Source of the DNA: Negaprion brevirostris
Taxonomy: Eukaryota
NCBI GenBank assembly: GCA_030324005.1
Contig: JARDVH010000084.1
Span: 93,050,417 to 93,114,416 of the forward strand
Direction of reading: 5' to 3'
Length of the DNA: 64,000 bases
Position 1 is the first letter of the stretch. Each line of letters opens with the position of its first letter. A program made the position numbers and the translations under genes. Shown here in pieces: positions 6,764 through 58,154 of the stretch. Below the pieces are notes generated by a model. The model worked only from the letters and a program-made list of their open reading frames with translations, was not told the origin of the DNA and made no database searches.

Positions 6764-6789
6764 CTCTGCTTTATCACCAATTTTTTCCT
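6764..6789 (-). CDS. 26-nt microexon of the 27-nt class (EEKIGDKAE), ending in phase 0
   Basis: tttatgttttaccgcaacag|AGGAAAAAATTGGTGATAAAGCAGAG|gtacga; same caacag/gtac flanks as the 27-nt exons but 1 nt shorter. Confidence 0.72.
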
Positions 6790-7164
6790 CTGTTGCGGTA
6801 AAACATAAAGTATGTTTGAAGTACACTTGCTCTAAGTGAAAAGCTGATCTTGACACGTTTTGACATTTTTTCCCCCAATGGAACTCCACAGACGCATTAC
6901 GAAATTTGTGAGTACACATATGTTATTTTAGTTATTGTTGAAATTTTCGCAATTTTCAACAAAAATGTATTTCATAAGTAACATGATATATCGTTTTGTG
7001 CACGCAAACTTACAAAGAGAAAGATACTTGTTCACATTCATAAAGAAACACATACAAGCACGAACAAAATATTAATTTAATAGTGGAAAAGATAAAGTAT
7101 GTTTGAAGTACACTTGTTCTAAGACTGAAANNNNNNNNNNNNNNNNNNNNNNNNNNNNNNNNNA

Positions 7165-7256
7165 TCCACTTCAGATCAGCCATGATCTTATTGAATGGCG
7201 GGGCAGGCTCGAAGGGCTAGATGGCCTACTCCTGTTCCTACTTCTTATGTTCTTAT
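7165..7256 (+). mobile_element. CR1/HER1 LINE 3' tail
   Basis: gatcagccatgatcttattgaatggcggggcaggctcgaagggc...cttatgttcttatg. Confidence 0.8.
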
Positions 7257-7999
7257 GTAATGCATTTCATACATAATATGATATAGGTTTTTGTGCGCAC
7301 AAACACGCAAGCAGAAACACACTGTTGCGCGCTCATACAAAAAACATACATGCACAAACAGAAATATTAATTTAATAGTTTTCGAAATTGGATATTGGAT
7401 CTCAAACTCAGCTGATGAAGAGCACACCAAAATTTGGGGGCATTCAAGAGCTGTGTTCGATCAGGTGTGTAGTTCTCACAGCAACGTGGCTTGCTTTAGT
7501 ACTATATTAGAAATGTTTGATTATGAATTGCAGAAAAATGTAACAGCACCAGGAGCAGGAAAGAATATCACAATCGCAGGCTAGATAATTTTGAAAAGAG
7601 ATTAGCAGAAATTAAATTGATGCAGTAACGTCCGTAACAAGGGACAGCAAGCTAGAGGATAGAAAAAAAAGACAAAGATGTGTTTGATGATAGTAATTGA
7701 TACGAAAGTGCGCAAGAAGAAAAACCTGGAGCTAACCGCAAAAAGTGTAATGGAAAAAATCTACCCGTGACTGAGAGGTAAAGGAGCAGCAGATGATGCT
7801 TGTGGATTCGTAATACACATTTTATTGTATCAGTACCTGTCGCTGAGATTGTGAAGCGCAGATGGGAAGAAAAGGTTACTAATGGTTCACAGAATGCAAG
7901 TTCACAGCTGTTTTCGTTGCCATTGACTTGTCATGGACCCTTAAAACAACTGTAAAAATAAAAAAAAACTCTCCGCCGAATAACACTTCAGTAACATAC

Positions 8000-10665: not shown

Positions 10666-10701
10666 CTGCGTTTTTCAGACTTTCTTTCAGTCTGTCGATT
10701 T
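10666..10701 (-). CDS. 36-nt phase 1-1 microexon (EIDRLKESLKNA)
   Basis: tttcctttttgtttcag|AAATCGACAGACTGAAAGAAAGTCTGAAAAACGCAG|gtgttt. Confidence 0.9.
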
Positions 10702-11087: not shown

Positions 11088-11114
11088 CTCTTTCTTTTTC
11101 TCGTAGGTCACTAG
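11088..11114 (-). CDS. 27-nt phase 1-1 microexon (ASDLREKER)
   Basis: ttttttgtgaccacag|CTAGTGACCTACGAGAAAAAGAAAGAG|gtacat. Confidence 0.88.
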
Positions 11115-13725: not shown

Positions 13726-16411
13726 AGATAACTCATACATCGATGCCAGCAATTTAAGCATAGCTGCAGCAAACTATGGATAATTGAATGTCTGGTTTCT
13801 TTGTTAAATATACATTCTGATTGCAGAGTGTTTTCGTACTTTTGGAATGTTTTCAACAAAATCTTACCGTCAATTTTCATAACCACCTATCCGCTACACC
13901 ATCCAGTTCACAAACTCAGGCGTCTAATGTACGACTGACTATTGCATTCTCGACTTAGTGATGATTTGGTCTCAGCTTAAATGAACTTCTCTGCAATGAA
14001 CTTCTATGTTAGGTATGCTTGGCAAAACACCGCAGTACTTTTCCTTTGACTTCGGCAGATGGAAAACAAGAATACATTAATCGCCCACCAAAAAGAAACA
14101 TTATCTAGGCTTAGATTGTCCATTCAAGTCATGAAGTGGCATTCGAGCGAAATGGTTCTAGATCAGAGTCTGGGATGTTACAAGCTGCTCCAAAAGACAG
14201 TTTCATTATTGTTCTCACCATACGTAAGTTATTTACAATATCATGCATAGATTGCCGAACGCAGTCATATTTAGCCTTACTTTTGTTACTGTACTCTGGT
14301 AAGAATTGAACAGCTATTTATTCTGATTTATTTGAATTGCCTGTACCTTCCAAGCTAACGTGCAAATCAGCAAATCGATTATCTCTTCCAACTCCAAAAC
14401 CGTTCTTGTCGTTCAGAAATAAATCCTAACCGAGGCAGCTGAACGTGTTGCACGAATGCCGTTCATGTTGTGATTTGCAACATAACATTCGAGTCACATA
14501 GGTCTTCAACCATTTGACGCTATTCCTCTCTTCCTCAATTAGACTGGCATCTGCTCCACAGTCCCATGGTTCACATTCTGCCCATTCTCCTCCAACCTTA
14601 AAATTTATCTTTATAAGTTTGTTTTAAGACAGGTCTATTGGCTTGGCCACTCGAGGATACAACCGTCTCAACATGCCTTCAGTTTTTTTTTGTTCTAGAC
14701 TACTGATGCCAATGTGACAAGGCATTACTCCAATCCAGAAGTAGTCCGAACATGTGTGCATTTCTTTATGTGTTCGCACTGGCCCATTATTGAATCACAT
14801 CACATTAATATCATTACATTTTTGCAGGTGCTCGTGTCAGTGAAAGTTTGCAGTATGTGAATTGGTTTTGTTAATATGCCATCCTCATTGTTTTTAGATT
14901 ATTGGCTTTATTAGGATATCGGAATATTTTCAAAAATGAAAATGGGAACTATCAAGTTTTAGGAAAAGGCAATTTTAATAACCGAGCTGATGTGTATTAA
15001 TTGTTGCAATGTACTGATTCTACTTCTGTAATTCATACTTTCTCATTTGTTTAAGCAAGTATAAGCAGATGACGTTAAACATTGCAACCCACTGTCATAT
15101 AGCTAGCGCAAAACTAACATGACAATTTACCTAATGAAAATGGTACGATGGGGTAAAACATGTAATTGACTCTGAAAATCACAGAGAAAACGAAGTATAT
15201 GGAAATGATGCATCCGATTATGTGTATCACAAATCTGCAGGAGAACAGCCAACAGCTTGGGGATGGGAATGCGGAGAGATTTCAATTTAGTTTACGTCAT
15301 TTTTTTGCATCAAGTGTATCTTTATGCCCTTTTCATGAAAATGTTTCTCAAATAATTATATATCAGCGACGGAGGTTATTACTAAACTGTCAAAGCATTT
15401 CCCAATGCTATGGCACAAAGAGACATAATAATGTTTGACGTCAGTGTGTGAAATCGTTTTATTAATTAGTCATCCTCATTGTTTTTAGATTATTGACTTC
15501 ATCAGGATATCGTGTACTAGTAATGTGAAACAGTGAACGACTTTTATTTTAGCAAATGAATGATAATACAAAATACCAAAAATAGGTTGTCAATTTTGTA
15601 CCTGGGATTGTATCCGCCAGCTTTCGCTCTGTTATGGCAAAACGGCACATTTTCAACACAGTGTCTTCCTTGTTCTGGCGTAGGATAAATATGACTTTCA
15701 CAACTCATTATATAACCTCTCTGTTCTTGCAGGCGTGCAATTTGCTCAAATCCGCAAACGACATTTCTCTCTGCGGCCACATTTAACTGTGGTTAATACG
15801 CATGCGTGCAAAAGCACATATGCAACGCCATCACATATAATTACAATGAAAAAAAAACACGACTTTCCATTATAAATGATAAGGAAAATATTAGAACAAA
15901 AACTATTCGTAAGCATTACTTTGAAAGACGGGAGGGAAATAGACAGGATAGTCGAGGCACGAAACTAAAGACAGTGGGATTGAAATGGCCTGGATATGCG
16001 CTGACTTGCAATGAGAGATAACATGGAGGGCGGTCCAAGTGGAGTGCAGTGCGAGCTTAATCTAAGTCGACAAGGCTTTATGATCCCGGCCGACAAATCC
16101 GGGAGCACGAGAATTTGCGCACTGGACTAACGAACGAAGTGGTCACATTTGAAGAAAATTCAACGTGCAAGGATGAAAATGCGTTAGTTCGCTTTCACTT
16201 TATATTATCCGACATGGATATGGTGTCGGAAATGTTTACATTAATCTGCTCATTTGTTGTCAATAGTGTTGGCTCAATGCCAGTTAAGCATTGTCTTTTG
16301 AACCATATATAGCCTCTGCTAACTAACCGTAAAAACAGGGGTTTTTTTGCATCTCATTAAACCATACCTACACAGCATTAGATCAACAACGATCTGCAGT
16401 CACAAACTCAC

Positions 16412-16447
16412 CTGCTGCGCTCAAGCGGTATTTCAAGCTCTCAATGT
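16412..16447 (-). CDS. 36-nt phase 1-1 microexon (DIESLKYRLSAA)
   Basis: cttttattccattttag|ACATTGAGAGCTTGAAATACCGCTTGAGCGCAGCAG|gtgagt. Confidence 0.92.
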
Positions 16448-17888: not shown

Positions 17889-17915
17889 CTTTATCTTTGG
17901 CTTTCAGTGCGTCTT
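17889..17915 (-). CDS. 27-nt phase 1-1 microexon (EDALKAKDK)
   Basis: tttttccttttgacaaaacag|AAGACGCACTGAAAGCCAAAGATAAAG|gtaccc. Confidence 0.88.
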
Positions 17916-24455: not shown

Positions 24456-24491
24456 CTGCGTCTTTCAGCTTGTATTTAAGTCTGTCAACCT
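24456..24491 (-). CDS. 36-nt phase 1-1 microexon (EVDRLKYKLKDA)
   Basis: gtcattttactttag|AGGTTGACAGACTTAAATACAAGCTGAAAGACGCAG|gtgagt; peptide visible inside ORF 24427..24780(-). Confidence 0.92.
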
Positions 24492-25254: not shown

Positions 25255-25281
25255 CTCGGTCTTTATATCTGCTTTCGTCCT
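25255..25281 (-). CDS. 27-nt phase 1-1 microexon (QDESRYKDR)
   Basis: cattttccacaacag|AGGACGAAAGCAGATATAAAGACCGAG|gtattt. Confidence 0.88.
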
Positions 25282-31510: not shown

Positions 31511-31546
31511 GGGCTCTTTGCAGGTCATCTTTTAGTCTCTTTATAT
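31511..31546 (-). CDS. 36-nt phase 1-1 microexon (DIKRLKDDLQRA)
   Basis: ttcttgtttcctccgtcag|ATATAAAGAGACTAAAAGATGACCTGCAAAGAGCCC|gtaagc. Confidence 0.9.
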
Positions 31547-34215: not shown

Positions 34216-34591
34216 GTGTGCAGGAGACACACAAAGAAAATAAAACGATATAAATCACGGTTAGGCTTAAGCATAATGAGAGGAATCGTAATCCCGTGAT
34301 CCTGAAAGGGAAGTATAATATGGAATCAGTTAAACAAGAAATTATCAACTAACTGGAGGATATGTGTGAGTGATCAGCACTGTAGTTACTTCAGTTGACG
34401 TTGGTGGAGGCAGGAATGATACTTTTCCAAGTGTGGTATTCGGTAAAGAACACAAGATGACATCGGCAAAGTATATTTTCAATTAGAAGTGATGCATATA
34501 AATAATGAATATACGCCAAGGTGCCATTAGAAGCAAAATTGCATGAGTTTCAAAATTAAGATTCTTCCATCTGAATTGACCTGACTCACAA

Positions 34592-38388: not shown

Positions 38389-38415
38389 CTCTCTCTTTAC
38401 ACTTCACGTCTTCTT
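38389..38415 (-). CDS. 27-nt phase 1-1 microexon (EEDVKCKER)
   Basis: cacaacag|AAGAAGACGTGAAGTGTAAAGAGAGAG|gtactt. Confidence 0.85.
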
Positions 38416-39451: not shown

Positions 39452-39734
39452 CACGGCATGGTAGCACAGTGGTTAGCACTGCTGCTGCACAGCTCCAGGG
39501 ACCTGGGTACGAATCCTGGCTTGGCTCATTGTCTGTGGGGAATTTGCACATTCTCGTCGTGCCTGCGTGGGTTTCCTCCGGGTGCTCCAGTTTCCTCTCA
39601 CAGTCCAAAGATGTGCGGGTTAGGTTGATTGGCCATGCGAAAAATTATCGCTTGGTGTTGTGAAATGCGTATGTTAGAGTGATTAGCCGTAATATACGTA
39701 AGGACATGGCGGGGGAGGGGGGGTGCGGTGGAAT
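39452..39734 (+). mobile_element. HE1-type tRNA-derived V-SINE
   Basis: Box A tagcacagtgg, box B-like ggtacgaatcc, V-domain ttgcacattctc...gggtttcctccgggtgctcc. Confidence 0.9.
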
Positions 39735-42069
39735 NNNNNNNNNNNNNNNNNNNNNNNNNNNNNNNNNNNNNNNNNNNNNNNNNNNNNNNNNNNNNNNNNN
39801 NNNNNNNNNNNNNNNNNNNNNNNNNNNNNNNNNNCCCCCCCTCAACCCTAGTCTCTCTACTTGATCGCCGGTAGAATATTTCTGACGTGGTAATTATGCC
39901 TCCAAAATTTCTGATGACGAAGCAAATTTAGTTTATCCATGGCTCCTCTATTACATCTGCTATGTCTGGAAAGTTAAAAGAACTCTTAATCAATGTCGCC
40001 AAATGTTCGACTTCTTTAAAAAAAAAAAATCTGTATCATACCTGAAAACCCAGTGTCCAGAAATATTTCGCTGGCAAACGTTATGAGTTTTGAATCAGAT
40101 CTCAGGTATCGTCAGAAATTTTGACTTTGCTACAGATTGAACTGATTTTTTTATCCAGCCGCAGTGTCTGGCAGGTATAGAAATGTATGACTTGTTTGAT
40201 TTTGCCTTTATTTCTTAACAACATGTTGGGGCTCCGTTAAACAAAAACAATATTTTTCTTAATCTATTCTTACATCTATTTTGTGAAATACTAATACAGC
40301 GTGTATTTTCCTTTCTGAGTTTCCATTTTGGTTTATTGTAAAATCCTTGATAGTTGCACGTCGTTATGAAGCATTTTTGAGACCACAAGTGCAATTAAGC
40401 CAGATATGGTTGGGACAGGCAGTTGTTTCCAAAATTCTTCTTCGGCCTTGAATTTATTGAAATGAGGGTTATAGAAACGTACAGGGAAGAAAGAGACATA
40501 CACGTTTGGAGAGACATTAGGTAATTCAGCCCGCCGATCTCACTCCGCCATTTTATACGATCCTGCATGACTTCCGTCTCATCTGTTTTTTCCCCATAAC
40601 CCTTTATCCCGTTTTTGATCAAATATTTACGTATCCCATTCTTGAATCTATAAACTGACATTCACTTCCTTCACTGTACTCATCACTGAACTGAAAATCT
40701 GAGGGTAAAAACACAACTGCCAATCACTCAGGTCTGTTATCCGAAAAGAAAACGTAACTCATTTGTTTACCTTATTGTTTCTCCTAAAATTAAATACTGC
40801 ATAAATGACTCGAAGAAATCCAATAGCAAATAAAAAAATGAAAACAGGTAGCACTCCAATGCGTACTTGAATGAATTTTGTTTTTTGGCATGTGTCACCA
40901 GATATTCATTATTTAGAACGCCATCAATAAGTTTTGGTTATTTCATGCTTCTTTAGTAGTTCGCTTCAATACCTTATAACTTTTTTGTCTCCTTCCAGTT
41001 CTTTTTATGTCAATAAATAAAGAGGATGGGCGGCTTGCGATTGTCACAGCGAAATATGATTCTTTTTTTTTATCCTTGCAGAACTGTGACATTACAAGCA
41101 GAGACTTCACAGGAGGGATTCAAAATGGTGTTGCATGATGTAATTTGTAGGGGGATGCATGATAAGTGAGAAATTTGTGATTGGGTGCGATGTTCGAAGG
41201 CTAAGTATAAGTTGCATTAGTTCTGGAGATTTTTCTCATCACTACAAAATTGCCATATCAGGAAAGTATCTTTTAACACGTAAAGCGTCGTGGAGGCTAT
41301 TGTGGAGGTCAACAAGAAAACCTCGTTAGGCCGCATTTGTTTTTAATAAGAGGGCACAGGAGGCAGTTAGTTCTCATCCAAAGATAGATATCAAAGAACA
41401 GGACGGACGAGGTACATAACAAAACAAATATAGTAGGATGTAAGTTACGGTTAGATACAAGCATGATGAGAGGAAGCACAATATGGAATCAGCTAAAGAA
41501 GAAATTATCAGGTCACTGGATAAGTGTATGTGATTAGCCTGGTAGATACTGCAGTTGACGTTAGTAGAGGGAGAAATGATACGTTTCCCAGTGCCATATT
41601 CTGTGAAGAAAACATGATGACATACTGTTACATATTTTCATCAGGCGAAATTTATTTTCAATTACAAGTGATGCAGCTCTTTCTAAATAATGCATATACA
41701 CCCAGCTTTCATTGGAGGCAATATTTCAAGAGTTTCAAATTACAGATTCTTCAATCTAAATTGAGCTGACTCACAATCGTAGGCTGAAGCAAAGTGTAAA
41801 TATGAATGAAATTGGAAGGCACAACATAATTAATTCGAGTAACGAAACGTAATTTGTGCAGCCAAAATCGAAAAATGATGAGGAGAAATTTGAGAATTCA
41901 GAAATTCGTTTTTTATTGAAATCCGAGGAACATATTCAATTCCGGGCAACCGCTAAGTTAAAATAATATGAAGATGTAGCAGGCCGTTTGTGGAGAAAAA
42001 GGATGAGGCATTTTAAAAGATGGGGTTACGTTATGACGGACAACATAGCTACTGAGTAGATACTGGCAA

Positions 42070-43115
42070 TGGGCCAACAGTGCTGCAGGCACGGGGCAGT
42101 CTTCCCTCACCCTCAGTCTGCAGTCAATAAGGATGGACAACAACCCGCCTCTCTGATCATCCTCAACAGCGGTGCTCTACAAGGCTGTGCCCTCAGCCCC
42201 ATGCTACACTCCTTGTACACTTTTGAGTGTATAACCGAATTCGAGCTGAATTTGGTACACTATGTGCACCTTTGAGACTATAACCAAATTCCGCTCCGAT
42301 TTGGTTTTCAAGTGTGCTGCTGCCACCCGCTTTGTGGATTAGATTGAAACATTAAGAAAGGAAGTGCAGGAAAGAGTTAGAAAATCTGGGAAACTGGAGC
42401 GATGACAATTACGTTTCCCTCAAGGTCAGAAAAACGAAGCGGACAATCATCGATTTTAGGATGTAATGGAGGGCAAGCTACTGTCTACAGCAATGGGGCG
42501 GAAGTAGAAATGTTCGTGAGCATCAAAATTTTAGGCCTCCGGGTCACCAGCAACGGGTTCAGTTCCCTCCATGACGACGCTATAATAATGAAAGCTCACA
42601 AATGTCTCTACTCAACGAGGAGACGAAACAAATTTGGCACGACTCTCATCAAGTTCTATTAATGCAACGGAAAAAAACATTCCTCATTGTAACACAAGAA
42701 ATTATAACGAGTCGAAAATTAAGCAAAGCCTTTCATTAAAACAAGCCTCCGATCCATTGACACTGTCCAAACTTCCCACTGCTTCATAAAGACAGTCAGC
42801 ATATTCAAAGTTTTCAAGCACCCCGGACATATTCTCTTCCAACTTCTTTCACCGCGAAAAAGATACAGACGACTGAGATCACGTATCAACATAATCTAAA
42901 ACAGTTTATTTATCCTGCTGCCACCGGACTTTTAAAAGGACCTACCTCGCGTGAAGTTGATCTGTCTCTACATCTAAGCTATCACTATGACCTACATTCT
43001 GCATTATTTCCTGTCATTCCATATGTACTTTTTGCATTTCCTCTGTAGTGCAAGCAAACATACCTTCCCCTGTACACTGTGTGTGACAATAATCAATCGA
43101 ATCAAATCAAATCAA
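42070..43115 (+). mobile_element. Degenerate Rex1/Babar-type LINE
   Basis: LIILNSGALQGCALSPMLHSLYT and an aatca-repeat tail at 43090-43115. Confidence 0.75.
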
Positions 43116-45343
43116 CCGATAACTAGACAGCTCGGACCATCACTGGACTGAGTCACAACTGCAAGATGGAAATATCTGAGGATATTATAGTTTGTGATGA
43201 AATACGTGACATGGCATTGAAACAATGATTAATTCCGTTAAGAACGGCATAAAATAGTGATCAATTGATCTTGTAATTGAACAGATTTCTCCTTCATGTT
43301 GGAGGGGTTGTTTCTGGGAAGAGAGGAGCGTGCAGTGTGCAGAANNNNNNNNNNNNNNNNNNNNNNNNNNNNNNNNNNNNNNNNNNNNNNNNNNNNNNNN
43401 NNNNNNNNNNNNNNNNNNNNNNNNNNNNNNNNNNNNNNNNNNNNNNNNNNNNNNNNNNNNNNNNNNNNNNNNNNNNNNNNNNNNNNNNNNNNNNNNNNNN
43501 NNNNNNNNNNNNNNNNNNNNNNNNNNNNNNNNNNNNNNNNNNNNNNNNNNNNNNNNNNNNNNNNNNNNNNNNNNNNNNNNNNNNNNNNNNNNNNNNNNNN
43601 NNNNNNNNNNNNNNNNNNNNNNNNNNNNNNNNNNNNNNNNNNNNNNNNNNNNNNNNNNNNNNNNNNNNNNNNNNNNNNNNNNNNNNNNNNNNNNNNNNNN
43701 NNNNNNNNNNNNNNNNNNNNNNNNNNNNNNNNNNNNNNNNNNNNNNNNNNNNNNNNNNNNNNNNNNNNNNNNNNNNNNNNNNNNNNNNNNNNNNNNNNNN
43801 NNNNNNNNNNNNNNNNNNNNNNNNNNNNNNNNNNNNNNNNNNNNNNNNNNNNNNNNNNNNNNNNNNNNNNNNNNNNNNNNNNNNNNNNNNNNNNNNNNNN
43901 NNNNNNNNNNNNNNNNNNNNNNNNNNNNNNNNNNNNNNNNNNNNNNNNNNNNNNNNNNNNNNNNNNNNNNNNNNNNNNNNNNNNNNNNNNNNNNNNNNNN
44001 NNNNNNNNNNNNNNNAGGGCTCAGCAAGGCATTAAGCCTCATATTTTGGGACAGCATGTGGGTTCCTGGTGTGGAACCCAGAAGAGAGCGTTTTGCGCCC
44101 GGGTGTGCAGGCTTCCGTGGGTCTGCAAGTTCCTTGCACCCTCGTCCGATCCAGCCCCATGTCCCTGTACCAGTGGGAAAGAAGGGAAGACAAATATCAA
44201 AAGGACAACTGACAAGTGTTGCCGTAGCTGTGAGAATGAATGGAGAAGTTCAGGCTCCTTGAGAAGCAGAACATCAAGTCATTTCATCCGCATGTTGTTC
44301 GCCAGGGAAAGGCAATATTAAAGGGAAGAAAACCAAAATCTTTCTCATTAATTTCCATATAAAAATAAATATGTGAAGTGCAACTTTTCATAAGCGCACC
44401 GCCGTGTCAATTCCGCCCGCCCCCAGCCAGCCTCCCCACCCCCACCTTCTCCAACGTCAGTACCCTGCCCCTTGCTGCTGCAGTTAGTACGCTTAGGCTG
44501 AGAATGGAGAGAAGGGCTAGAGAATAGCTAAATCTATATGGTCCAATCACGAAATTCTGCCCATAGTGACACTCATTTGTCGCTGATTGTCTCAACGACA
44601 ATTGCTGTCCATGCTGCTGGTTTTGCATGACAGTAGGTCTAAATGAAATTGGCTCCGACACAGCGGTAACTTCAAAAAATAAAGAGGACTATTACAGTTA
44701 TAAATCTCGAGCCGCTCTTTGGGGTGAGCGAGTTAGTGACGCAGAAGAGCTAGCTCGCTTCCTCAGAAACTAATGTTAACGCATTTAAGCGTAGAGTTGT
44801 GACAAAACCGTCCTGGCCCTTGAGACGAAGCTCCAAAGGCTTTTAACAATGCCATACGCAGGCTGCCTCCAATCACCTATCAAGCTCTCGGCTTCTGATT
44901 GGGGTAGAAGGAGGCCGGGAAGTTCCATCGGCTTTGGAGAGAGATTCTTACTTGGTCTCGATCTGAAAAATAATAACATTTGGCCGTATCCAGAATGCTA
45001 TTCCGGAAGCCAACGAAGGTAACCCGGAGGGTTTGCTGAGCAGTCCAGATGGGTTTCAGCATTGCACTAATACCAACCTCCACGAATCAGCGTTGTATAT
45101 AAAGATGCAGGAGTACGTTGGCCCCCTTCATATTCCACTCAGATCTCGCAATTTTACGTTTATTTTTCATGGTTAGTAACAAATGCGCGGCACACCGTAC
45201 TGCCTACACTGAGTTACCTTTTAAGTGGTAACGTAAGGGTTTGCATGGTAAAACGTATGTAAACGTTTATGTTGTAACAAAATTACTGAATATTATTCAC
45301 AGAGCTCAAAAAAATCAATTTCTGTTTTGTCTCCTGTAAGTAC

Positions 45344-45370
45344 CTCTCTCTTTATATCTTACGTCTTCTT
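45344..45370 (-). CDS. 27-nt phase 1-1 microexon (EEDVRYKER)
   Basis: cacaacag|AAGAAGACGTAAGATATAAAGAGAGAG|gtactt. Confidence 0.85.
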
Positions 45371-46219
45371 CTGTTGTGATAAAACGAAGACATATATTAA
45401 GGCTGGTGTCAGATGTGTTTGACAGTAATTCAAAATAAAGTGTATCTAAAATATGTTGAAACCTCGATGTTTCATTTAAATTACGTTTTTTTCTAAAATT
45501 ATATTGAGAGTATACTTTAATTTATTTGACCCTGTACCGAGACATTGAGAAGTTCGTGATCATACATCATCTTTTCTAGTTTATTGTGGACTACTTCTCA
45601 GAGTACAATTTCGACAGTGTAAACTCTCCGCTAACTTATTGAGAGAGGAGGGTACATCTCATGCAAGGGTTCATTTTATTGGATAACCACCTCCTTCCGT
45701 TATTTACTATTTAAATTGCCTTCCGCCATCACTAAAGTTGTTGTAAAAGTGTTAGAAATAATCAAGTTGTCTTCTCGTTAAAGTAGCAAATCGAGTATTG
45801 TGGGGCCTTTGACCTCGTTTGCTATTGTGCAGTTTTGTCTTGCACGCTGTAGCAGATATGTTTGAATTCACATTATCGGTAGCATGGAGGCCAGTTCCAG
45901 AAAATACTTAGCAACAGCATTTGGCGATTAGGGATCTTGAAACAAAGATGGATGGACACGGTTAGAGGAATGTCAATGAGAAAGAGGAAGAGGCAGCAAA
46001 ATTGGAACACTAATGTTGAGGAGCACTAACTAAATTGACAGGTAGCTGAATAGTGAGCCATACTTTCCACTTTTAAATTGGCGTTTTATTTAATCGAGCC
46101 TTGTATAATGCTTGCATTCACTAAACTCAGTAGCTTGGCAAGTTAAGTTATTGTGCATAACGACAATCAGTCGAGGCAAATTTGTTAAACACTGCTGAAA
46201 TGTTAGGACACGTTAGGAA

Positions 46220-46610
46220 ACATAGGAGCATAGAAAATAGGAACAGAAGGAGGCCCTTTGGCCCTTTGCACCTCTTCCACCATTCAGCACGATCCTGCCT
46301 GATCATCCAAATCAACAACCTGATTATGCCTTCTCCCCATTACCTTTGATCCAATTCGCGCCAAGTGTTATTTCTAGATACCTGCTGCGTAGATTCAAGT
46401 TCCTGGTATCAACTATTTCAATGTGGTAATGAATTCCACAGGCTTATCACTCTTTGGGTGAGGAAATGTCTTCTCATTTTCGTCCTAAATCAACTACCCG
46501 AATGCTCATACAGTAAGCTCTGTTTTGCACCACCCCACCATTTGGGGACATCCTCTCTTCATCTATTGTGTCTAGTCCTGTTGGAATTTTCTAAGTCTGT
46601 GTGAGATGCA
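46220..46610 (-). mobile_element. CR1 3' fragment (paralogous copy at 39280-39435)
   Basis: aacataggagcatagaaaataggaacagaaggaggccctttggccc... at the same position at the ends of units 1 and 2. Confidence 0.75.
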
Positions 46611-46764
46611 GTATAACATTTTCGATCAGCTACTGGCCCGATGTGTCCAGATCTTTGCCAAATGAAATGGAGGCAATTTTGATTCATAATTCAGGAGAAA
46701 TTATAAGATAAAGGCAAAGAAAAGAAAAAAAAATGTAAGTTACTGTCCTATACAACTTCCTCAC

Positions 46765-46800
46765 CGGCTCTTCGCACGTCATCCTTTAGTTTTGGCAGAT
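46765..46800 (-). CDS. 36-nt phase 1-1 microexon of coiled-coil repeat gene (DLPKLKDDVRRA)
   Basis: tttcttctttcttccctcag|ATCTGCCAAAACTAAAGGATGACGTGCGAAGAGCCG|gtgagg; strong polypyrimidine tract and donor. Confidence 0.88.
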
Positions 46801-46993
46801 CTGAGGGAAGAAAGAAGAAATACATCTTGTTACAGGCGAAGTTTTATGTGGCAATTCCGAAAATAGGTGCATTTGCCGNNNNNNNNNNNNNNNNNNNNNN
46901 NNNNNNNNNNNNNNNNNNNNNNNNNNNNNNNNNNNNNNNNNNNNNNNNNNNNNNNNNNNNNNNNNNNNNNNNNNNNNNTTGCAACAAAGGCAT

Positions 46994-47021
46994 AAAAAAG
47001 CCCCGAAATGGGGCATTTTTT
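46994..47021 (-). terminator. Bacterial-style intrinsic terminator in a gap-flanking fragment (probable contaminant)
   Basis: Minus strand aaaaaatGCCCCatttcGGGGCtttttt, 24 nt after a TAG at 47039-47041. Confidence 0.45.
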
Positions 47022-50000
47022 ATAATGATTAATAAAGGCTAATGAATAGCAGTCACAGAAATGACCCTGACGGTACCATCGTCTTTAGTGTCGGTTCCCA
47101 CAACATCTCGGACGCCAAAGATTTTTTTTGTATTTGCTGCATCATCCGAAATGGAAAATCCAAATCTTGTCATATTGAATAATGTTAACTGCAGAAGTGT
47201 AAATGAAATAAAAAAATCTGATCATCTTCTGTCCGAATTTCGTTCGGCATATTTTCTTGACTCACTTGAGGTTAGCAATAATAATTGTAATTTTTAGACT
47301 GACGTTGATGTAAAACTTTTCACACACCAGTTAATGAAATAGCAACGGGTTTTAAAAAATTATCTTATTAAAATATGTCAATAATGGAACGTGAAACTGC
47401 TGACAAATTTTCTCAATCCTATCACAACTCAATGCGAGATATTACCTCTAGATCCAGCTTCTTTTGTTCAATTGCACCAGAGAAAAATCTATGAATAGAC
47501 TAAGATATCGCTCCTACCTCCCTGCGATGCATATACACCAAACATACCTTGGCTATACTTCAAACTACACGAGTCACTTTTTTGGTCAATGGGATGTTTC
47601 CCTTGCCTCCCGCAGTAACTTGAGATAGGTTACATCGGTAGCGGGGTCTTGCCTACCTTAATGCGATTTAGGATAACCAAAACAAACTCAATGTTCTTTA
47701 GAGCACCGCCGCTCTGATTCCTGGCCTGAACGTCAGACATGTTCTCCTATTTGGTGAATACAATTATGCCTTTTTTTTTATTACTAATTTCACCCACTTG
47801 CTGTGGCATCACGCATTCCTCCTTCCATCGTCCATGAGTGGGCCTATTCTTCCTGCTGCTACCCGCTTGCTCCTATTATAGACATAAAATGTCTTGGGGT
47901 TCTCCTTTACCCTGTTTGCTAAAAAAAATATGGCCACGTTTAGCCCTTTCTATTTTTTTCCCTAATTTATTGCCTACTTTCTTTATAATCGTCAACGGCT
48001 TCGGTTCACTCAGACGTTCCCCTTTAGTTTGATCACCATTTGATCGCCTGTAGGATGTTTCTGGCGTCGTAATTCTGCCTCTAATATTACTAAGCTCTAA
48101 TCGAATGTGTTGTACCATTGATTCCTCTGGTGTATCTTCTGCGTCCGGAATATAATGTTAAATGAATATTACTCAATCCTCACTTGAAAAAGAAATCTCA
48201 GTAATTCCCGAACAACCAGTGGCCAGAAATGTTTCGCTGACAAACTTTCTCCTATTTGACAGTCACCTCTGGTATCATCACAACACATTTTTCATGTTCC
48301 TACAGGTCAACAAAATGTTATAATTGTCTTCAAGCTAAGTGTCAACCATACATGCATATGGTCCGAATGTTCCCCTTTGCTCTTACTGTCTACCTAGTTG
48401 GAGCTCCGTTGAAAACAATATATTTCATCATCCATTCTTATTTTTCTTTGCGAAATATTAATACAGCATGCATTTCCATTTCTAACGTTATATTTTAGTT
48501 TATTGTAAAACCCTTTATAATAGAACCTACTTATTGCACATTTATGCATCGTAAGTGGCATTAAGTAACACGTGGTTAGAAGAAGTAATTGAATTCCTGT
48601 TCATCATTGAATTTAGTGAATTGAGGTAACAATTGCCACCACAATCCACACTAGGAACATAGCAACACAAGAATTAGGAACGAGAGTAGATAGTTCAGTC
48701 CTTCGAGCCCACTTTGCCGTTCCATATGAACATGGCTGGTCGCCATCTCGTCCTAACTCGGTTGCTTTGATTTTTTTTTCCCGACAGCCCATTATCACTT
48801 GTTGATCTTTTTTTTCTCTCTCTTGACTCCCTAGTCTTGCGTCCTTCACGTTAATATTCGTTGAACTGACGGCCTAAGCGATGCAACTCACAGCCTTTCA
48901 CTCAGACCTGTTTCCCAATAATAAAATGCAACTCATTTGATTTGCCTCCTGTTTCACCTGAAACTAAATGTGGCATAAACGATTCTGAAGAATGCCAAAC
49001 CCACAAACCTGATGCACTCCAATTCATATTTGAATGAAATCTATTTTTTTTTTGCTTATGTCACCAGATATTCTTTATTTTTAACATCATAAATAAGTTG
49101 TGGTTCTCCAAGCAAATGTGTTTGCTTCAAAACATTAAGATGTTTATTGTGTTCTTCCCGCACTTTGATAATGATGCAAGAGCATTTAAAATTTAATTCT
49201 TACGCTTCTATAATATCAGATATTATAAGGGATCAAAAGTTGTCATGTCAAAAATATCCCTAACATGTTCATTTTTTAGACTAGCTATATGTTTTAATAA
49301 TAATAAAATTAACTTATGATATATCGAGTAGAAAATATAGAGTAAAGACAACAATGTCTAAAGAGTATAGAGTAAAGAGCAAAGCGAGCTCTTTTCTCTA
49401 CCAATGGCATTTGAATGGAACAATAGCTCGTTAACATATTGTATGACAATGAACCACGAATTCCACTTTGACCAAGACACGGCTTCCATCAAACTGATTC
49501 TTGCAACATTATTTTGTTACAGATGATAACATACTTAACATAGGAATGCACTCTTAACTAATCCAGCACACCATGTGGTAACATTCTGACAGCTGATGGT
49601 GTCCTTCAATGAGACAACAGTTCAAGCGATGTCAATAAAGGAGGATGCACAGCTTGCCATTAGCACAATTAAATAAGATTTTTTTTTTAACCGTTGGCAG
49701 AACTGTGTGTTTACTCATAAGATGCATTTGCCTGATATAAGGGATTCAAATAGTGTTGTATGAACGCTTGACACTAGATTTGTAGGCGGATGTCTTAATT
49801 ATGGGTATATTAATAATTGGAATTCCGTGATTGGTTGCAAGTTTGGAAGACAAAACAAATGACTTGGATTATTTTTGCAGATTGTTCTCATCACTATAGC
49901 ATTTACGTGTGAGGCATGGACCATTCAAAACAGCAAAGCAGCACACACAGTTGAGTGAATGTCAACACGAAATTTTCATTTGGCTGTTTTTTTTTCTAAT

Positions 50001-50919
50001 GAGGTTGAATGGGAGGAATCTAGTTCTCATCCCAAGAAAGAGGTTAAAGAACAGATACGAGCGGACACATAATAAAATATAGAAGGGCTCAAGTTTTGTT
50101 TAGACCCAAGCATAATGAGTGGAAGTATGGAGCCTACGATTCTGAGAGGGAAGTACAATATGGAATCAGCTGATCAAATAGCTACCACTTTAATAGATGA
50201 TAATTGCGTGAATCAGCGTGGCAGCTTCTTCGGTTGACGTTGGTGGAGTCAGAAATGATATGTTTCAGAGCATGGCATTCCGTAAAAAAAAAAGACAAGA
50301 CGATATGGTGTTAAGTATTTTTAGCAGTCGATGTATATTTTCAATTACAAGTTNNNNNNNNNNACAAGTTATGCAGCGGTTTCACAAATAATGCATATGC
50401 ACTAACTTGCAATCGTTGGCAATATTTCATGAGTTTCACAATTCATTGTATTAAATCTGGATTGATCTGTCTCACAGTCGGAGACAAATGCAACGTTTAG
50501 ATGTTAACATAATTGAAAGTCGCAACATAATTGTTTTGGGTAATAAAACATAATTTGTACAGAAAAAAAAACGTAAAACGATGTGGAGAAAATCTGAGAC
50601 CTCATAATGTCGAAATCTACCTGACACCCAAGTAAATAATTAAATTCACTGCAAAGACTAGAAGAAAACAATATGAAGGTGCACCATGTTGGTTTTCGGA
50701 GAGAAAGGGTGAAGTATGCTACAGTAGGTCTTTGACATGAAGAGAAACAGAAATGTTGTGTGGGATAATGACAAGTTGACGATAGTACTATAGGCACAAG
50801 GACATATTGTTCTAAGCCACACACCGTATACAGTAAGGATAGACACACCATCTCCTCATCCTCAACACTGGTGTTCAGCAATCCTATGTCCTCAGCCCCA
50901 TACGTTACAACAATACACA

Positions 50920-53900
50920 AAGAACAAATAACAAATAAAGTTACAGCACAGGCCCTTTGTCCCGTCAAGCCTGCACCAGTCATGTTGCCCGTCTGAACTA
51001 AAGACATCTACTCTTCCCAGAACCATGTCCCTCTATTCCCATCATATTAATATATTTGTCACTATATGGTCACTAACGTAGCTGTTTCAAATACTTTCCA
51101 CTACAGCGCCTTCCAGCCACCCACCACCCTCTGTATGAAACATTGGCCTCTACATTTCCTTTGAGCCTTACCCCTCTCACCCTAAATCTGTTTCCCCAGT
51201 ATTTGACTCATGCACCCTGGGAAAAAAGCTTCTGAGTATTAACTCTGTCTCAGCCACACATAATTGTGTAGACTTCTCTCAGGTCGTCCGTCAATCTCCA
51301 TTGTTCCAGTTTGAAAAAAACAAGATGCTTCAATCTCTTCCCATAGCTGAAGTCCTCCATACCAGGCAAATTCTTGGTAAATCTTTTTGTACCGTCTGCA
51401 AAGCTTTCACATCCTTCTGGCACTAGCGCAACCAGAATTGAACACTATATTCTAAGCGTGGCCTAGCTAAGGTTCTATAACCCTGCATCAAGACTTGTCA
51501 ATGTTTAAACTTAATGCCACATCCGTTGAAGGCAAGCAAGTCTATGCCTTCTTTATTGCCTTCTCCACCTGTGTTATCTCTTTCAGTGGTCTGTGAGTTT
51601 GCAGACACATATATATTTCACGTAGCAAAAGTCCAAGACTCTTCTCTGAGGAATGCTACTCATCACAACCCTCCATTCAGAAACACACACATTTCGACTG
51701 TTTCCCTTTGTCTTCCTCGACCGAGCCAGTTCTGTATCCATTTTACTACATCACCTCTAGTCCATTGCGACTTCAACTTCTATACAAATCTGCCATGAGA
51801 GATTTTGTCAAGGGTTTTGCCAAAGTCGATATAGACTAGATCCGCTGTCTAACCATCATCAATAAATATTCTTTGTCACTTCGTCGAAAAGCACAATCAC
51901 GTTAGTGAGACAAGATCTCCTGTGCATAAAACCATGTAGCCTCTCGCTAATACGTTCACTTATTTTCGAGTGGGAGCACAACCTACCTTGAAGGCTATTT
52001 TCCATAAACATCCCTATCACTGACATAAGGCTCACTGACCTGTAAGTACTTGGGTTATCCTTGCTACACTATTTAAACAAAGGATAATAATTAGCTATTC
52101 TCCAGTCCTCTGTGACTTTCTCTGTTACCAGTGAGATTACAAAGATTTCTGGCAAGGTCCCAGGATTTTCCTCCTTTGCCTCCCACATTATGCTCGGGTT
52201 GATCCCATCAGGTGCTGGGGACTTATCTACCTTAACGTTTTTCAAGACCGCTAATACTTCTCCCTTTGATCTCAATATGACCGACACTCTCTACACACCC
52301 TTCCCAGATTAACATATAACAAGTCTTCCTCTTTGGTGAATACTGGCACAAAGTACTCAAGTAAGTCTTTGCCCATGTCCTGTGGTTCCACGCATATATT
52401 CCCTCCTCTGCCACTGAGTAGATCAACTTTCTCCCTGGCTACCCTCTTGCATACACTATTAATAGAGAGAGAGAGATGCTGATTTGCTCTCAAACGTCTG
52501 CCCACAAACTACATTCTTCAATTCTTTCTTAATATTATTATAATTAGCTTTCTCCCAATTTAGTATCTTCACCTGAGGACTACAAGTATCCTTTTCAATC
52601 ATTGCCTTAAAGTTTACTGAATTATGCTCACATTACCAAAACTGTTCACCGACTGAAAAGTCGATCACCTGGCTGGGCTCATTCACCAATACAGCCATTC
52701 CCGATTTGGACCATCTACATCCTGTTTCAGGAATCCTTGCAGGTTACACCTTCCTGCCCCATCGACGCCCCTAGCACGAAATGAGTCCTAGTCAATGCCA
52801 GGAATATTAAAACCAGCCACCACAATCATCCCAGGTTACATTTACAAATTATGAAAACCTGCCTATGTATCTCTTCCTCTATCTCCTGCAGCCTGTTGGG
52901 AGGCCTAGACTAAATTCCCAACATTGTGACTACGGCCTACTTATTCTGGAGCTTTACCCATATTGTATTGCTGTATGCCTCCTCTGCCATATTCTCCTTA
53001 ACGAATAGTGCAACTGCCCGACCCCTTTACGTCGGCTTCTACCCTACATGAAACACTTACATTCTGGAACGTTAAGCTGCCAATCTCTTCCTTCTCATAA
53101 CCAAGTCTTTATAATGCCAACAATATCATAATCCCAAGTGCTAATCCAAGCTCAAGTTCATCTGCCTTAACTATTAAATCTCTCGCATTGAACAACTGCA
53201 CTTCAGTCCACCAAAGTGTCTCTGATCAGCGACCACACCCCTTCTGCTGTTCCTGTAAGTCATACTGGCCCTACTCTTTCGTTCTCTTTCACATAATTCA
53301 AATTTGCTTTTGCTCCCAAGTTAGCTTAATCTTTCACATTTGATACGAGCAAGCCTCCGTGCCAGAAATTTCTCCCTACTTCTCCACCACCCCCCCCCAC
53401 TTCGCCCCACACCTCAACCCCACTGTAGATGTAACCCGTTTTCTTGTAGAAATCCCACCTATCGCGTAAGAGATCTCCATTTTCCAGACATGTGAAACCT
53501 TCCGTTTTATACCAGCTGATTGATTGATTGACTTATTGTCAGAACCACTAACATGCAGTATTGTTTATTGTGCGCTATACAGACAAAACAGACCGTTCAT
53601 ACAAAAGGGAACTAGAGAGAGCAGAATGTAGCGTTACAGTCATCGCCAGGTGTCAAGAAAGATCAACTTAATGCAAAGTAGGTCCATTCAAAATCTGACA
53701 GCAACCGGGAGAAAGCTTTTCTTGAGTCAGTGACTGCGTGACCACTGCCTTTTATATCTTTTGCCCGATGGAAGAAGGTGGAAGAGAAAATGTCCGAATG
53801 CGTGGGATCGTTAATTATGCTGGCTGAGAACACAGCCTTGTAGTGCACCGGTCTTGAGGATGATCTTGGATGAAATGTTGTTGCCTATCCTTACTGATTG

Positions 53901-55070
53901 TGGTCTGTGAGCTAGAAAGTTCCAGGTCCAGTCGCAGGGGGACATGCCGAAGCCCAGGGCACGGAGTTTGGAGATGAGTTTCGTGGGGATAATTGTGTTG
54001 AAAGTTGAGTTGTCGTCAATAAGTAGGATCTGACATAGGTGTCCTTGTTATCTAACTGTTTCAAGGTCGAGTGCAGGGCCAGAGAGATGGCGCCTGCGGT
54101 GGACTTGTGGTGGTGGTAGGCAAACTGCAGTGAATGCCGGTCGTCCATGAGGCTTCAATTGATTCGTGCCATGACTAGCTTCTCGAAGCACTTCATAACG
54201 CTGGATGTCAGAGCAACCGGCCGATAATCATGAAAGCGCGCTGCTTGTTTTTTCTTAGGTACCAGGATGATGGTCGTCTTCTTGAAGCAGATAGGGACAT
54301 CAGACCACGTGTTGACCTGTACTGTCTATCTACGTTTAACCTCATTGGCACGTGGCATAGGAAGTACCCTTAGATTACGGCCGAAGAAGTCCTGCTTTTT
54401 TTAAATTTCCTAATGCTGCTGCAGACCGCGTCACATGTCCTCGCTATGCCGTCAGTACAATGTCTGATTGTTCACCTTCTCCCTTCAGAATGTATTCCGC
54501 CAGTTCAGAGACATCCTGGATCCTGCTACCAGGGAGGCAACATTCCACCCTGGAGTCTATTTCACGCCGACATAAAAGTTATCAGTAACCCTAACGAAAT
54601 AGTCCTCTATAATTATTACTCTAGTTCTCTTTGTCCCTCCCTTCTTTGTAACACAGCCTGCCGTGATGCCACTGTTCTAGCTGCTGCAGTTATTAGCCCT
54701 GATAGGCCATCCCCCAGTATCCAAAANNNNNNNNNNNNNNNNNNNNNNNNNNNNNNNNNNNNNNNNNNNNNNNNNNNNNNNNNNCTTCTAGCGAGCACTC
54801 ATCTATCTGCCTGCAGCTTGGATGTCACCACATCACTAAAACACGTGTTTGTTTTACGCGAACTTCATGCTCATTCGACCATGCAAATCCTCCTCCAACC
54901 ATCCCTGCGGTCCGTTCGGGCTCCATTTGGATGCACTTCCTGCGCATGTATTCGTCCGAGATGCTGGAAGAGTTATGGGTCTCCCACATCTCACTAGTTT
55001 AGCAGTAAACACAATGACTGACATTTCAATCACCAACTAAATTATTTAAGACAATTCACTAAACGCCTGT
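50920..55070 (-). mobile_element. Near full-length decayed CR1 LINE (ORF1 esterase region + ORF2), interrupted by another LINE
   Basis: 3' tail at 50920; LKNVKVDKSPAPDGINP...EDWRIAN; endonuclease remnant about 52600-53200; ORF1-like segment 54480-54620. Confidence 0.8.
53520..54310 (-). mobile_element. Rex1/Babar-type LINE nested in the CR1
   Basis: SLQFAYHHHKSTAGAISLALHSTLKQLDNKDTYVR; gatt-repeat tail at 53518-53530. Confidence 0.82.
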
Positions 55071-55074
55071 CTTC

Positions 55075-55960
55075 ACCTATAGCTGCAGGTGCTTACTTTC
55101 TACTTATTTTTGACTGTGTTGCTAAATTCCCCTCCAACTCGATTTTCAAGTTTGCTGGTGACACCAGCGTTGTGGGTAGGATCTCAAATAATAACGAGAC
55201 AATGTGCAGGAAAGTGTTCGAGAAACTGGTGAACTGAGGCGACAAAATGAATCTCTCCCTCAATGTCAACAAAGCGAAGGAAGTAGTCGTAGACTTCAGG
55301 AAGCAAAGAGAAGTGTATGTTCTTATCTATATCAATGGGGACGAAATAGAGAAAGAACGAGAGCTTCAAGATCTTAGAAGTATTGATCACGAACAAACTT
55401 CCTTGGGCCCTCCATGCAGACGCTACAGTGAAAGAAGCCAACCAACACACCTACGTTCTCATGAGACGAAGGAAATTTGGCATGTCCGCAAAAACTCTCA
55501 CTAATTTCGACAGATGCACCTTGGAAAATATCATTTCTGGTTGTATCACGATTTGTATGACTCCTAGACTGTCTAAGACCGCATGTAACTAGAATGCTCA
55601 ATTCAGCCTAATATCCATTAACAATGTTTACACTTCCTATTGCCTCAGAAAATCAGCCAGCATATAAAAACACCCAACGCGGCCAGGACGTCCTCTCTTA
55701 CACTATCTTCTGTCTTCTGTCGGGAACAATCCGAAGTCTGGCATCACGCGCCAACCGACTCAAAAACAGTATCTCACTGCTGGTATCAGACTTTTGAATG
55801 GACCTACCCTCGCTTTAGGTTGATATTTTTCTACACCTTAGCTCCGGCTGTAACGTTACTTTCTGCACTCTCTATTNNNNNNNNNNATGTACGGTATTCA
55901 TCGTCTGTATTGTCGACAAGAAGCATACTTTCCGTTGCTCAATGATACATCTTTCAATAA
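55075..55960 (+). mobile_element. Rex1/Babar-type LINE 3' part (5' part at about 50745-50900), paralogous to 42070-43115
   Basis: aagtttgctggtgacacc, LSLNVNKAKEVVVDFRK, RKFGMSAKTLTNF.RCTLENIISGCIT. Confidence 0.82.
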
Positions 55961-58127
55961 TGAATCAAACCAAGCCATAAGGGAATTCGCCCGACAACCA
56001 CATTGAGGTCTATCTGAGAATGAGATAGCCTGCAAAGCACTACCTGACACTGGCTTGAAACAATGTTTACTTCCGTTATCAACAGCGAGTATAGCGAACA
56101 ACTGATATTGCTGAGGAAAATTGTTCTCCATTTCACAGGAAGGGTTGCAGCTAGGAAGGGAGGAGTTTTCAGCTTCCAGAAAATTAGGGACAATAAAAGT
56201 GAATTCGCCGTGAATCTGAATCTAACTTCATGTCTTTCACTTTCCATCTAACGACTCTGATTTTTCTGAGTGAAATTAGTAAACCTTGGCCCCCACTTCC
56301 GATGACCATTTTAGTTTACTGCTCTTCGTAAATGCCCAATGCATCAGCTGTAGGTAAAACACGTTATTTGAGCTTGCTAGCATTATCAAGCAGCGAACTC
56401 ACCCTTCAGTTGATCTTGCAATCTTTGTAACTCTGAAACAAGTTTAAAAAATAACTACTGTGACTTGAATGATTTTTTTTCGTTCACTGCATCAGAATAA
56501 CAACAAATCGGATAAAATGTTATTTGGAATGTTCTATATATGGAGACATGTATATATAAAGTATGTAAATTTAGGAATTATTTATAACATGCTTATCCGG
56601 ACCAGTCCACTCAGTCGATTCCGCCAAAGCTCAAGGGTGCATGCTTACAGGGCTCAGCAAACAATTAGGCGACTCTTGCATTCGCCGTCTAATTTGTGAA
56701 AACACGGAACAACATGGAGAGAACAGATCTCTTGCAAGTATGCGCAGGCAAATGTTCTGCCCCCTTTGCCAATCTTCCATTGTGCCTGTTACCCAGTGGG
56801 AAAGCAGTGAAGGCATAAACCAATGGGACATAAACCACCAAATCATTCCGCCCACCTGTCGCCTGTCAGTGAAACGCAATATTAAAAAGAAGAAAGATAG
56901 AATCTATCTCACTTATTTGTGTATAAAATTAATGCATACGAAATGTTCAGCTGTCCAACAGCACCCCGCCGTCCCACCTCATTACCCCGTCCCTTGCCGC
57001 TGTGACGAGTGAGCCGAGGCCGGAAAGGAAGGAGAGTGCTTGAAAACGATTAAACAGTTCCGGCCTCATCACGAAATACTGCTCATTTTAAAACTCAATG
57101 GTAACTCGTTGTCGCAATTATCTTCTTGCCGCGACTTGCTCACGGCAGCTTCGGATGTGCTTCAGTCGACTTGCAATAAACCAAGAGGGCGGAACGTGCC
57201 TGTTGACGATGGTCGCTATAATTTGTATATTCCCTGCGGATAATGACGGGCTGGGCAATAACATCCGAGATTCANNNNNNNNNNNNNNNNNNNNNNNNNN
57301 NNNNNNNNATAGCTTAGAGAACAGGGTCAGCAGGCATACAAAAAAAAGAACGATGACTGTTATCTATGCTGCTAATTCTGCATGACACTACGTACAAGTG
57401 AAGTAGTCGTCAGATGACAGCGGTATTATTTTTAATAAAGACGGGTGAGCGTCGTTACATCTGTCAATCGGTGCTCCGCTTGATAGGTTGATCGACTTGG
57501 AGACGGGGGGAAGGTGGCGTAGGGATTAATGAGGGCGCGTTTAATCGAAAAGCAGCCTTGTGACAAAATCGTCCTGGCTCTTGGGGCGAAGCTTCAGTGT
57601 CTTCTGGCATGCCACACGCGCACTGCTTCCAAGCAGCAGTCACGTCTGGAGTTCTGCTTGGGGGACGAGTGAGGCCGAGGACGTTCAGACGTGATCGGAG
57701 AGCGCATTAGCTTGGGCCCGATAAGGGGAAAAATGAAAATGAGTCTGACCAGCATCCAGAATGCTGCTTTCGATTCCTCTGGGAAGCTAATCCAGAGGCG
57801 GGCAGAGTTTGCTGAGCAGTCTGAAAGGGATGCGGAGATGTTGTTATCACTGCAATCATTCCAAGTTTCCCACACCAAAGCTGTCTCTAAATCTGCGGGA
57901 GCACCCTGACCAACGTCGCAGTTCACTGAAACGTTTATTTTATGTCTATTTCACAGGACAGCAACGAATGCGCGGCGCAATGTGTTGCATGCACTGAGGA
58001 ATCTTAAAATGGAAATTACATGAATTGCAAGATAAAATCCTTCTAAGTAAAAATCCATCCTCTAACAAAGATACTGAATGTTATAAGAAGAGCTGATATT
58101 CAATTTCCATTCTTTGTCCTTAAGTAC

Positions 58128-58154
58128 CTCTTTCTTTATATTTCAGATCGTCTT
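58128..58154 (-). CDS. 27-nt phase 1-1 microexon of coiled-coil repeat gene (xDDLKYKER)
   Basis: Minus strand cacaacag|AAGACGATCTGAAATATAAAGAAAGAG|gtactt; open in phase 1; homologous to six other short exons. Confidence 0.85.

Follow-up and report, generated by a model that had tools for sequence, protein, structure and literature searches.

Microexons of a Probable Coiled-Coil Rod Gene in a Likely Tandem Cluster on a Lemon Shark Contig

What kind of gene could be assembled from exons of 36 and 27 nucleotides (nt), how far does it extend, and what might its product do? These questions are raised by a 64,000-nt stretch of the genome of the lemon shark, Negaprion brevirostris (contig JARDVH010000084.1, hereinafter C84, positions 93050417-93114416), which we call the window; positions in Mb refer to C84 unless another contig is named, and all others given without a contig name, including the signed ones, are window coordinates. 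A first-pass annotation had proposed that a hidden gene for a coiled-coil rod is encoded here by minus-strand microexons, and the gene has indeed materialized: the exons belong to an extended array and are collinear with a database protein, P0046. Judging from sequence comparison, the window very probably lies in the middle portion of a microexon gene that extends over 205 kb or more.

A microexon gene running through the window

The window contains 15 microexons on the minus strand, rather than the 12 with AG/GT ends and phase 1 that had been listed initially. A minus-strand scan for AG-[36 or 27 nt]-GT returned 11 of the 12 exons that were likely on that list, and each of the 11 was confirmed at its stated place as a minus-strand exon in phase 1 that is flanked by AG and GT and keeps an open frame. 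In leave-one-out profile tests these exons scored 22-58 bits whereas the best plus-strand site per test scored 5.6-10.1, so they are not chance matches. Two 30-nt exons (56432-56403 and 36643-36614), both with strong splice sites, and a weaker 27-nt exon (15628-15602) emerged from a general scan for splice sites, and the exon ending at 6764 turned out to be 26 nt long (6789-6764). Along the minus strand, the exon lengths are thus 27, 30, 36, 27, (gaps), 27, 30, 36, 27, 36, 27, 36, 27, 27, 36 and 26 nt, as follows:

58128..58154, minus strand: 27-nt phase-1 microexon, class B, in duplicated unit 1
56403..56432, minus strand: 30-nt phase-1 microexon, class C (a shortened 36-nt type), absent from the earlier list
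46765..46800, minus strand: 36-nt phase-1 microexon, class A
45344..45370, minus strand: 27-nt microexon, class B, in unit 2
43345..44015, no strand: assembly gap, where a 30-nt exon would be expected at about 43797
39735..39834, no strand: assembly gap, where a 36-nt exon would be expected at about 39818
38389..38415, minus strand: 27-nt microexon, class B, in unit 3
36614..36643, minus strand: 30-nt microexon, class C, absent from the earlier list
31511..31546, minus strand: 36-nt microexon, class A
25255..25281, minus strand: 27-nt microexon, class B
24456..24491, minus strand: 36-nt microexon, class A
17889..17915, minus strand: 27-nt microexon, class B
16412..16447, minus strand: 36-nt microexon, class A
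15602..15628, minus strand: divergent, weaker 27-nt microexon with a proline, absent from the earlier list
11088..11114, minus strand: 27-nt microexon, class B, whose junction to the next exon corresponds to adjacent P0046 residues
10666..10701, minus strand: 36-nt microexon, class A, matching P0046 residues 81-91
6764..6789, minus strand: 26-nt class-B-like exon, one base below symmetric, with no P0046 counterpart

When spliced, the 14 symmetric exons yield 142 amino acids (aa) without a stop, so that the stop-free frame claimed at the outset stands for these exons but not for the 26-nt exon, which would shift the frame if spliced in and is likely decayed, skipped or an assembly error. That called exons are free of in-frame stops carries no weight here, since sequences with stops had been excluded when the profiles were trained. 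The four residues reported as invariant (L5, K6, A12 and K19) are so in the 11 confirmed window exons but not gene-wide, given that a sample of 43 36-nt exons from across the array has zero invariant columns in common.

The supposed strict alternation of 36- and 27-nt exons, broken once at an assembly gap, fares similarly: it is the common pattern, but the 30-nt exons had been missed and a 27-27 step occurs. The break itself has a simple explanation. Self-alignment of the window reveals three tandem copies of an intron-exon unit (31375..59134), 64-77% identical and offset by approximately 7-13 kb, that carry a 27-30-36 exon trio; the middle copy lacks two of these exons, whose expected positions, derived from the tandem-repeat offsets, fall within the runs of N listed above. 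Two unplaced contigs (C723 and C31941) hold extra copies of the unit, each 82% identical to unit 3 and with an intact 27-nt exon; since this identity is too low for alleles, these copies are likely extra modules missing from the chromosome, and the assembly therefore probably under-counts the unit. The idea that the length of the rod is set by module copy number is borne out in part by these units and unplaced copies. In contrast, a strict 21-aa bipartite module has to be abandoned because the array also includes 30-, 18- and 21-nt exons and 27+27 steps.

The identity of the gene is suggested by P0046, a 586-aa protein encoded on Logan contigs of 3402 and 1977 nt that barely exceed its reading frame, so that it presumably derives from spliced RNA of a relative. 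P0046 chains collinearly to the called exons from +82779 to -122120, that is, over about 205 kb, with a chain score of 922 and 31 adjacent junctions, compared with at most 599 and at most 17, respectively, in 37 reversed, shuffled and block-shuffled controls. The chains of P0001, P0045, P0063 and P0073 over 820 kb contain numerous exons matched by chance, and only adjacent runs in them were considered. Between +83 and -126 kb there are 56 called exons with 558 codons; 35 of the 55 steps alternate between 36 and 27 nt, in either order, whereas 9 are 27-27. Within the window, P0046 joins the 27-nt type of 11114 to the 36-nt exon at 10701 and then skips two called exons, 6789 and its successor. 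Where the lemon shark genome has 13 called exons with 134 codons, P0046 has, between the residues matching +73005 and those matching 11114, only a non-helical linker of about 28 residues; hence the window would represent either an expansion within the gene or a portion left out by the relative.

A chondrichthyan family of coils and B30.2 domains

What, then, does such a gene encode? The same minus-strand array holds two intact B30.2 exons, at 93.461 and 91.196 Mb (genome SPRY search), both single terminal exons with a mutual identity of 36%; the acceptor of the latter is in phase 1, compatible with the microexons. When the 91.196-Mb domain was used as the query, the only strong match among 42 (317 candidates) was the 945-aa protein XP_038671249.1 of S. 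canicula, 62% identical, in which coil modules of this family are joined to B30.2 and the coil matches exons sampled just above the 91.196-Mb B30.2. The coil of this protein (7998 candidates) led to four more proteins, namely S. torazame XP_072329362.1, Narcine 'golgin A6-like' isoforms and P0046. When the B30.2 exon was used in an exhaustive search, further members came to light in Cetorhinus, Hemiscyllium, Rhincodon, Narcine, S. canicula and Callorhinchus. The shared coil modules in collinear microexons mark XP_038671249.1, XP_038672308.1, XP_069775385.1 and XP_042191567.1 as a chondrichthyan family of microexon-encoded coil-B30.2 proteins. Pfam scans recognize B30.2 in the cluster and in five relatives, and find none in three relatives of 579-589 aa, P0046 among them. 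The relatives in the databases, each with a start and a stop of its own, span 221-945 aa, although the protein searches, with upper length limits of 1654-2000 aa, saw long forms poorly; the RefSeq isoforms differ by exon-sized blocks of 6, 9 and 12 aa. A profile of 47 single-exon peptides was uninformative against the protein database (0 of 7999 candidates scored).

The restriction of the family to Chondrichthyes, as originally suspected, holds among the named relatives. The notion of an entirely unrecognized protein does not: RefSeq contains relatives under the labels 'zinc-binding protein A33-like', 'golgin A6-like', 'TRIM39-like' and 'TRIM58', and the family also carries B30.2. A 'zinc-binding protein A33-like' of shark skin mucus, identified as A0A401NX33 (PMC10707392), could not be tied to the family and is not used here. 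In a quick tree of 93 B30.2 domains (omitting P0064, rows with fewer than 100 matched columns and most of the 150 matches from the exhaustive search), the family forms one clade of 13 rows with a long stem and a Shimodaira-Hasegawa-like approximate likelihood ratio test (SH-aLRT) support of 100. Six rows are named and all of these are chondrichthyan (sharks, a ray and a chimaera only), four come from the lemon shark genome and three are unnamed. Teleost A33-like proteins, which form a separate clade (7 rows, SH-aLRT 99), and mammalian butyrophilins lie outside the family clade. At least four more B30.2 exons, scoring next to those of the array, constitute a second locus on contig C121 (6.2-11.0 Mb); the two of these placed in the tree fall within the family clade and one C121 exon has 21- and 27-nt exons upstream. 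Among solved structures, the top sequence match for the terminal B30.2 exon is BTN3A1 (expect value, E, 2e-14), closely followed by TRIM21 (E 3e-13), and with scores so nearly equal the match picks no parent family.

The rod part of the prediction, a helical heptad repeat, is upheld by the homologues. The AlphaFold model of P0046 is helical over most of its length (predicted local distance difference test, pLDDT, 73), that of a Narcine member is helical with a beta-rich end (pLDDT 56), and the hydrophobic period is 3.50-3.56 in P0046 and 3.52 in the coil of P0001. A homodimer prediction for residues 72-260 of P0046 gave a score of 0.30, the mark being 0.32. The 14-exon window peptide has its main period at 3.40 rather than 3.5, as expected if the 19-residue 27+30 step breaks the register. 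By these predicted helices and periods the family appears to share the TRIM-type coiled coil, a long helix with heptad periodicity, and it has a heptad stretch encoded by symmetric phase-1 mini-exons as in the tails of BG and butyrophilins, with exons of 36 and 27 nt as opposed to 21 nt. The remaining domains of these families did not turn up. Pfam scans of eight family proteins detected no Ig family, RING or B-box. Motif scans found neither a B-box nor, over 820 kb, a RING, and the four IgV motif matches in the same 820 kb, in which N gaps remain, include none in a plausible immunoglobulin (Ig) exon. A comparison of the 5' regions of two genes aimed at an Ig, RING or B-box first exon yielded only repeats among the best matches listed. 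The maximum 19-residue hydropathy of nine family proteins is 0.5-1.4, compared with 1.73 for the BTN3A3 control. Because RING, B-box, Ig and a membrane segment are all missing from these scans, we regard the family as neither TRIM nor butyrophilin/BG.

The hypothesis that best accommodates these findings, to which we assign a probability of about 0.55, is that the product is a long cytosolic coiled-coil rod serving as a TRIM-like scaffold or spacer for the B30.2 domains of the family. Phase-1 microexons with lengths in multiples of three could be duplicated, lost or skipped without loss of the frame; the commonest pair, 36+27 nt, would add exactly three heptads and keep the coil in register, whereas 27+27, 36+18 and 27+30 steps would add stutters or hinges. 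Rod length would then shift by exon duplication between species and by exon skipping within one. The rods may dimerize like TRIM or BG coils, in which case a dimer of members ending in B30.2 would present a pair of binding domains whose spacing depends on the number of exons, and members lacking B30.2, probably including the gene of the window, could be length-variable partners, spacers or decoys. By analogy with TRIM proteins and butyrophilins (PMC8813856), it would be the dimerized coil that holds the ligand-binding B30.2 domains at their spacing. The setting would most likely be cell-intrinsic immunity; granted the gene identity and the several-gene reading of the array discussed below, we judge a role as an immune scaffold, by analogy, to be slightly better than an even bet.

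Several observations weigh against this hypothesis. The best fold match of the Narcine model, the coil-B30.2 fragment of TRIM20/pyrin (4cg4, E 6e-10), comes from a low-confidence model (pLDDT 55.9; template modelling score 0.25), and the immune role is argued from domain kinship and neighbourhood only. In the window, the 26-nt exon is out of frame, and the 12 exons from 58154 to 15628 have no helical counterpart in P0046 and may be a recent, unspliced expansion. Among the three tandem units, differences at third codon positions (15/49) are only somewhat more frequent than at first and second positions (19/98), and the pairs of 30- and 36-nt exons show no third-position excess at all. The start and stop exons of P0046 have no convincing match in the lemon shark genome, so that the gene boundaries are inferred, and no B30.2 was found for the gene of the window itself, although 4464 N just downstream, between -126 and -185 kb, could hide one; between 92.75 and 93.46 Mb, apart from these N, a full-sensitivity family profile detected no B30.2 remnant.

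The main rival is a structural role, in which the rods polymerize or bind the cytoskeleton to form a tissue-specific filament or tether, with B30.2 as an optional cap. The three relatives of 579-589 aa without any B30.2 would fit this idea, as would the mostly helical and acidic character of P0046 (net charge -23). We nevertheless consider it unlikely: B30.2 is intact in at least two genes of the cluster and in the C121 paralogues, and is retained across sharks, a ray and a chimaera, no filament family exceeds the Pfam cut-off, and an Atlas search with P0046 returned generic coiled coils only, with a low recognition value (1174).

One gene or many

How many genes share the array? In 464 kb around the window, a generic scan found 83 candidates on the minus strand and 10 on the plus strand (overlapping alternatives included), and class profiles applied to 664 kb of contiguous DNA made 139 calls, or 135 exons once nested and stop-containing calls were dropped, the longest gap between called exons being 21 kb. 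Of 16 samples of 8-10 kb taken between 92.71 and 91.20 Mb, 14 were positive, with 20 minus-strand and 0 plus-strand exons, whereas nine samples outside the array span gave two of each. The array thus spans about 2.3 Mb, of which approximately 40% was examined; one exon per 4.9-6.6 kb would extrapolate to 350-450 exons in total. Its upper end, at about 93.53 Mb, lies head to head with a plus-strand RBM4-type RNA-binding gene (93.55-93.56 Mb), and the whole sits in a region of C84 (85-101 Mb) that, by the genome SPRY search, is crowded with SPRY exons. The RBM4-type gene can serve as a synteny anchor for other genomes.

The region of the window is, in our estimation, quite likely a tandem cluster of several paralogues over these 2.3 Mb. 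Modules resembling the N-terminus of XP_038671249.1 recur at -185 to -282 kb, as the start of a new gene would give, and are read here as the next gene. High-scoring exons leave gaps of 75 and 35 kb flanking the P0046 match, and because of the former, the upstream block (+354 to +149 kb), which is rich in 36+18 exon pairs, could represent a gene of its own; were it part of the gene of the window, that gene would comprise 111 called exons with 1095 codons over about 480 kb. From +354 to +183 kb, the 36-nt exons often encode cysteine and pair with 18-nt exons, giving 18-residue rather than 21-residue steps. Between the two intact B30.2 exons, searches with two family B30.2 queries found only one further match, a frameshifted copy with stops (91621456-91621947, minus strand) that, by eye, is closest to the domain of the S. 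canicula 945-aa protein and resembles the end of a gene that has died within the array. Such a broken copy, together with changes in copy number, is in keeping with a family that evolves fast.

Could all this nonetheless be one transcription unit, with 93.41 Mb as its upper limit and the B30.2 at 91.62 or 91.20 Mb as its lower one? Such a unit, of 1.8-2.2 Mb with hundreds of microexons and many isoforms, would combinatorially splice the extrapolated 350-450 interchangeable coding microexons into length-chosen rulers for a B30.2 sensor, and would be among the most exon-rich vertebrate genes. The single strand and compatible phases of the exons, the gaps of at most 21 kb between called exons in the 664 kb and the failure to find B30.2 or any other terminal domain between 93.46 and 91.62 Mb all agree with this scenario. 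It is, however, improbable in view of the sizes, starts and stops of the database proteins (subject to the length limits noted above), the recurrence of N-terminal-like modules, the gaps beside the P0046 match and the dead end in mid-array. Least probable of all is that the window stretch or the whole gene is a decaying product of tandem duplication with exons no longer in use, because, notwithstanding the 26-nt exon, the broken B30.2 exon, the 12 exons without P0046 counterparts and the weak codon-position signal, 14 of the 15 exons keep their length, frame and splice sites in spite of the intron drift among the units, and both unplaced copies retain the 27-nt exon intact.

Several other features of the region are worth recording. 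A compact paralogue of about 70 kb (93.53-93.46 Mb), with some 20 microexons and an intact B30.2, is orthologous to S. canicula XP_038672308.1 and is the simplest member for experiments. A conventional PRY-SPRY exon on the minus strand at 91.007 Mb, 190 kb below the cluster, falls outside the family clade on a long branch. A 337-aa open frame on the plus strand at 90.2 Mb looks like a real exon and has no Pfam match at E 0.01. In the window itself, the 191-aa open reading frame at 2870-2295 and the other long open frames were considered as B30.2 candidates and none resembles this domain; several of the long ones look like what we take to be fragments of long interspersed nuclear elements (LINEs). 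Dispersed repeats at 12585-12791, 21211-21986, 34887-36342 and 51104-52212 are similar to one another, and their translations presumably represent CR1-type LINE reverse transcriptase.

Known systems with coils and B30.2 domains

In the literature visible to us (subscription papers and bioRxiv supplements lie outside this view) we found no description of the family, pieces of which RefSeq holds under unrelated names. There is an annotation blind spot here, with relatives filed under four names that have nothing in common and with exons, 18-36 nt long and set among introns of several kb, that escape ordinary searches. If the proposed scheme is correct, a B30.2 family peculiar to cartilaginous fishes has persisted in them since before chimaeras and sharks diverged, with neither the TRIM ligase module nor the butyrophilin ectodomain and with a rod built from hundreds of frame-neutral microexons over megabases.

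The TRIM-B30.2 proteins (TRIM20/pyrin, TRIM21, TRIM7) share with this family a cytosolic coil followed by B30.2 and provide the best fold match, and the shark cluster lies amid SPRY exons; unlike them, the shark family lacks RING and B-box, has a microexon-encoded rod of up to about 770 residues and includes members without B30.2. Butyrophilins such as BTN3A1 and BTN2A1 likewise have a heptad stretch and then B30.2, whereas the shark proteins have no Ig domain or membrane segment, a far longer rod and a B30.2 of a separate clade. The teleost 'zinc-binding protein A33' proteins (si:ch73-54f23.4) also combine a coil with B30.2, without RING in Pfam, and their RefSeq label is common to two shark members; they differ by a B30.2 identity of 30-38%, a separate clade and a short coil.

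Closest in gene architecture are the chicken BG genes. According to two papers (PMC5938342, PMC8813856), these also encode a long coil tail in many symmetric phase-1 mini-exons of variable number and are tandem genes in one orientation with copy-number change. In BG proteins, IgV is accompanied by a signal peptide and a membrane segment, and the exons are mostly of 21 nt (27-38 repeats) with a split first codon (PMC5938342). The shark family is without these domains; its exons, mostly of 36 and 27 nt, are scattered across hundreds of kb, and its proteins may terminate in B30.2. In the BG tail, selection acts on the coil for reasons that are unknown (PMC5938342); the shark family, which parallels the BG tail, offers a second system in which to ask what the length and the sequence of such a coil do.

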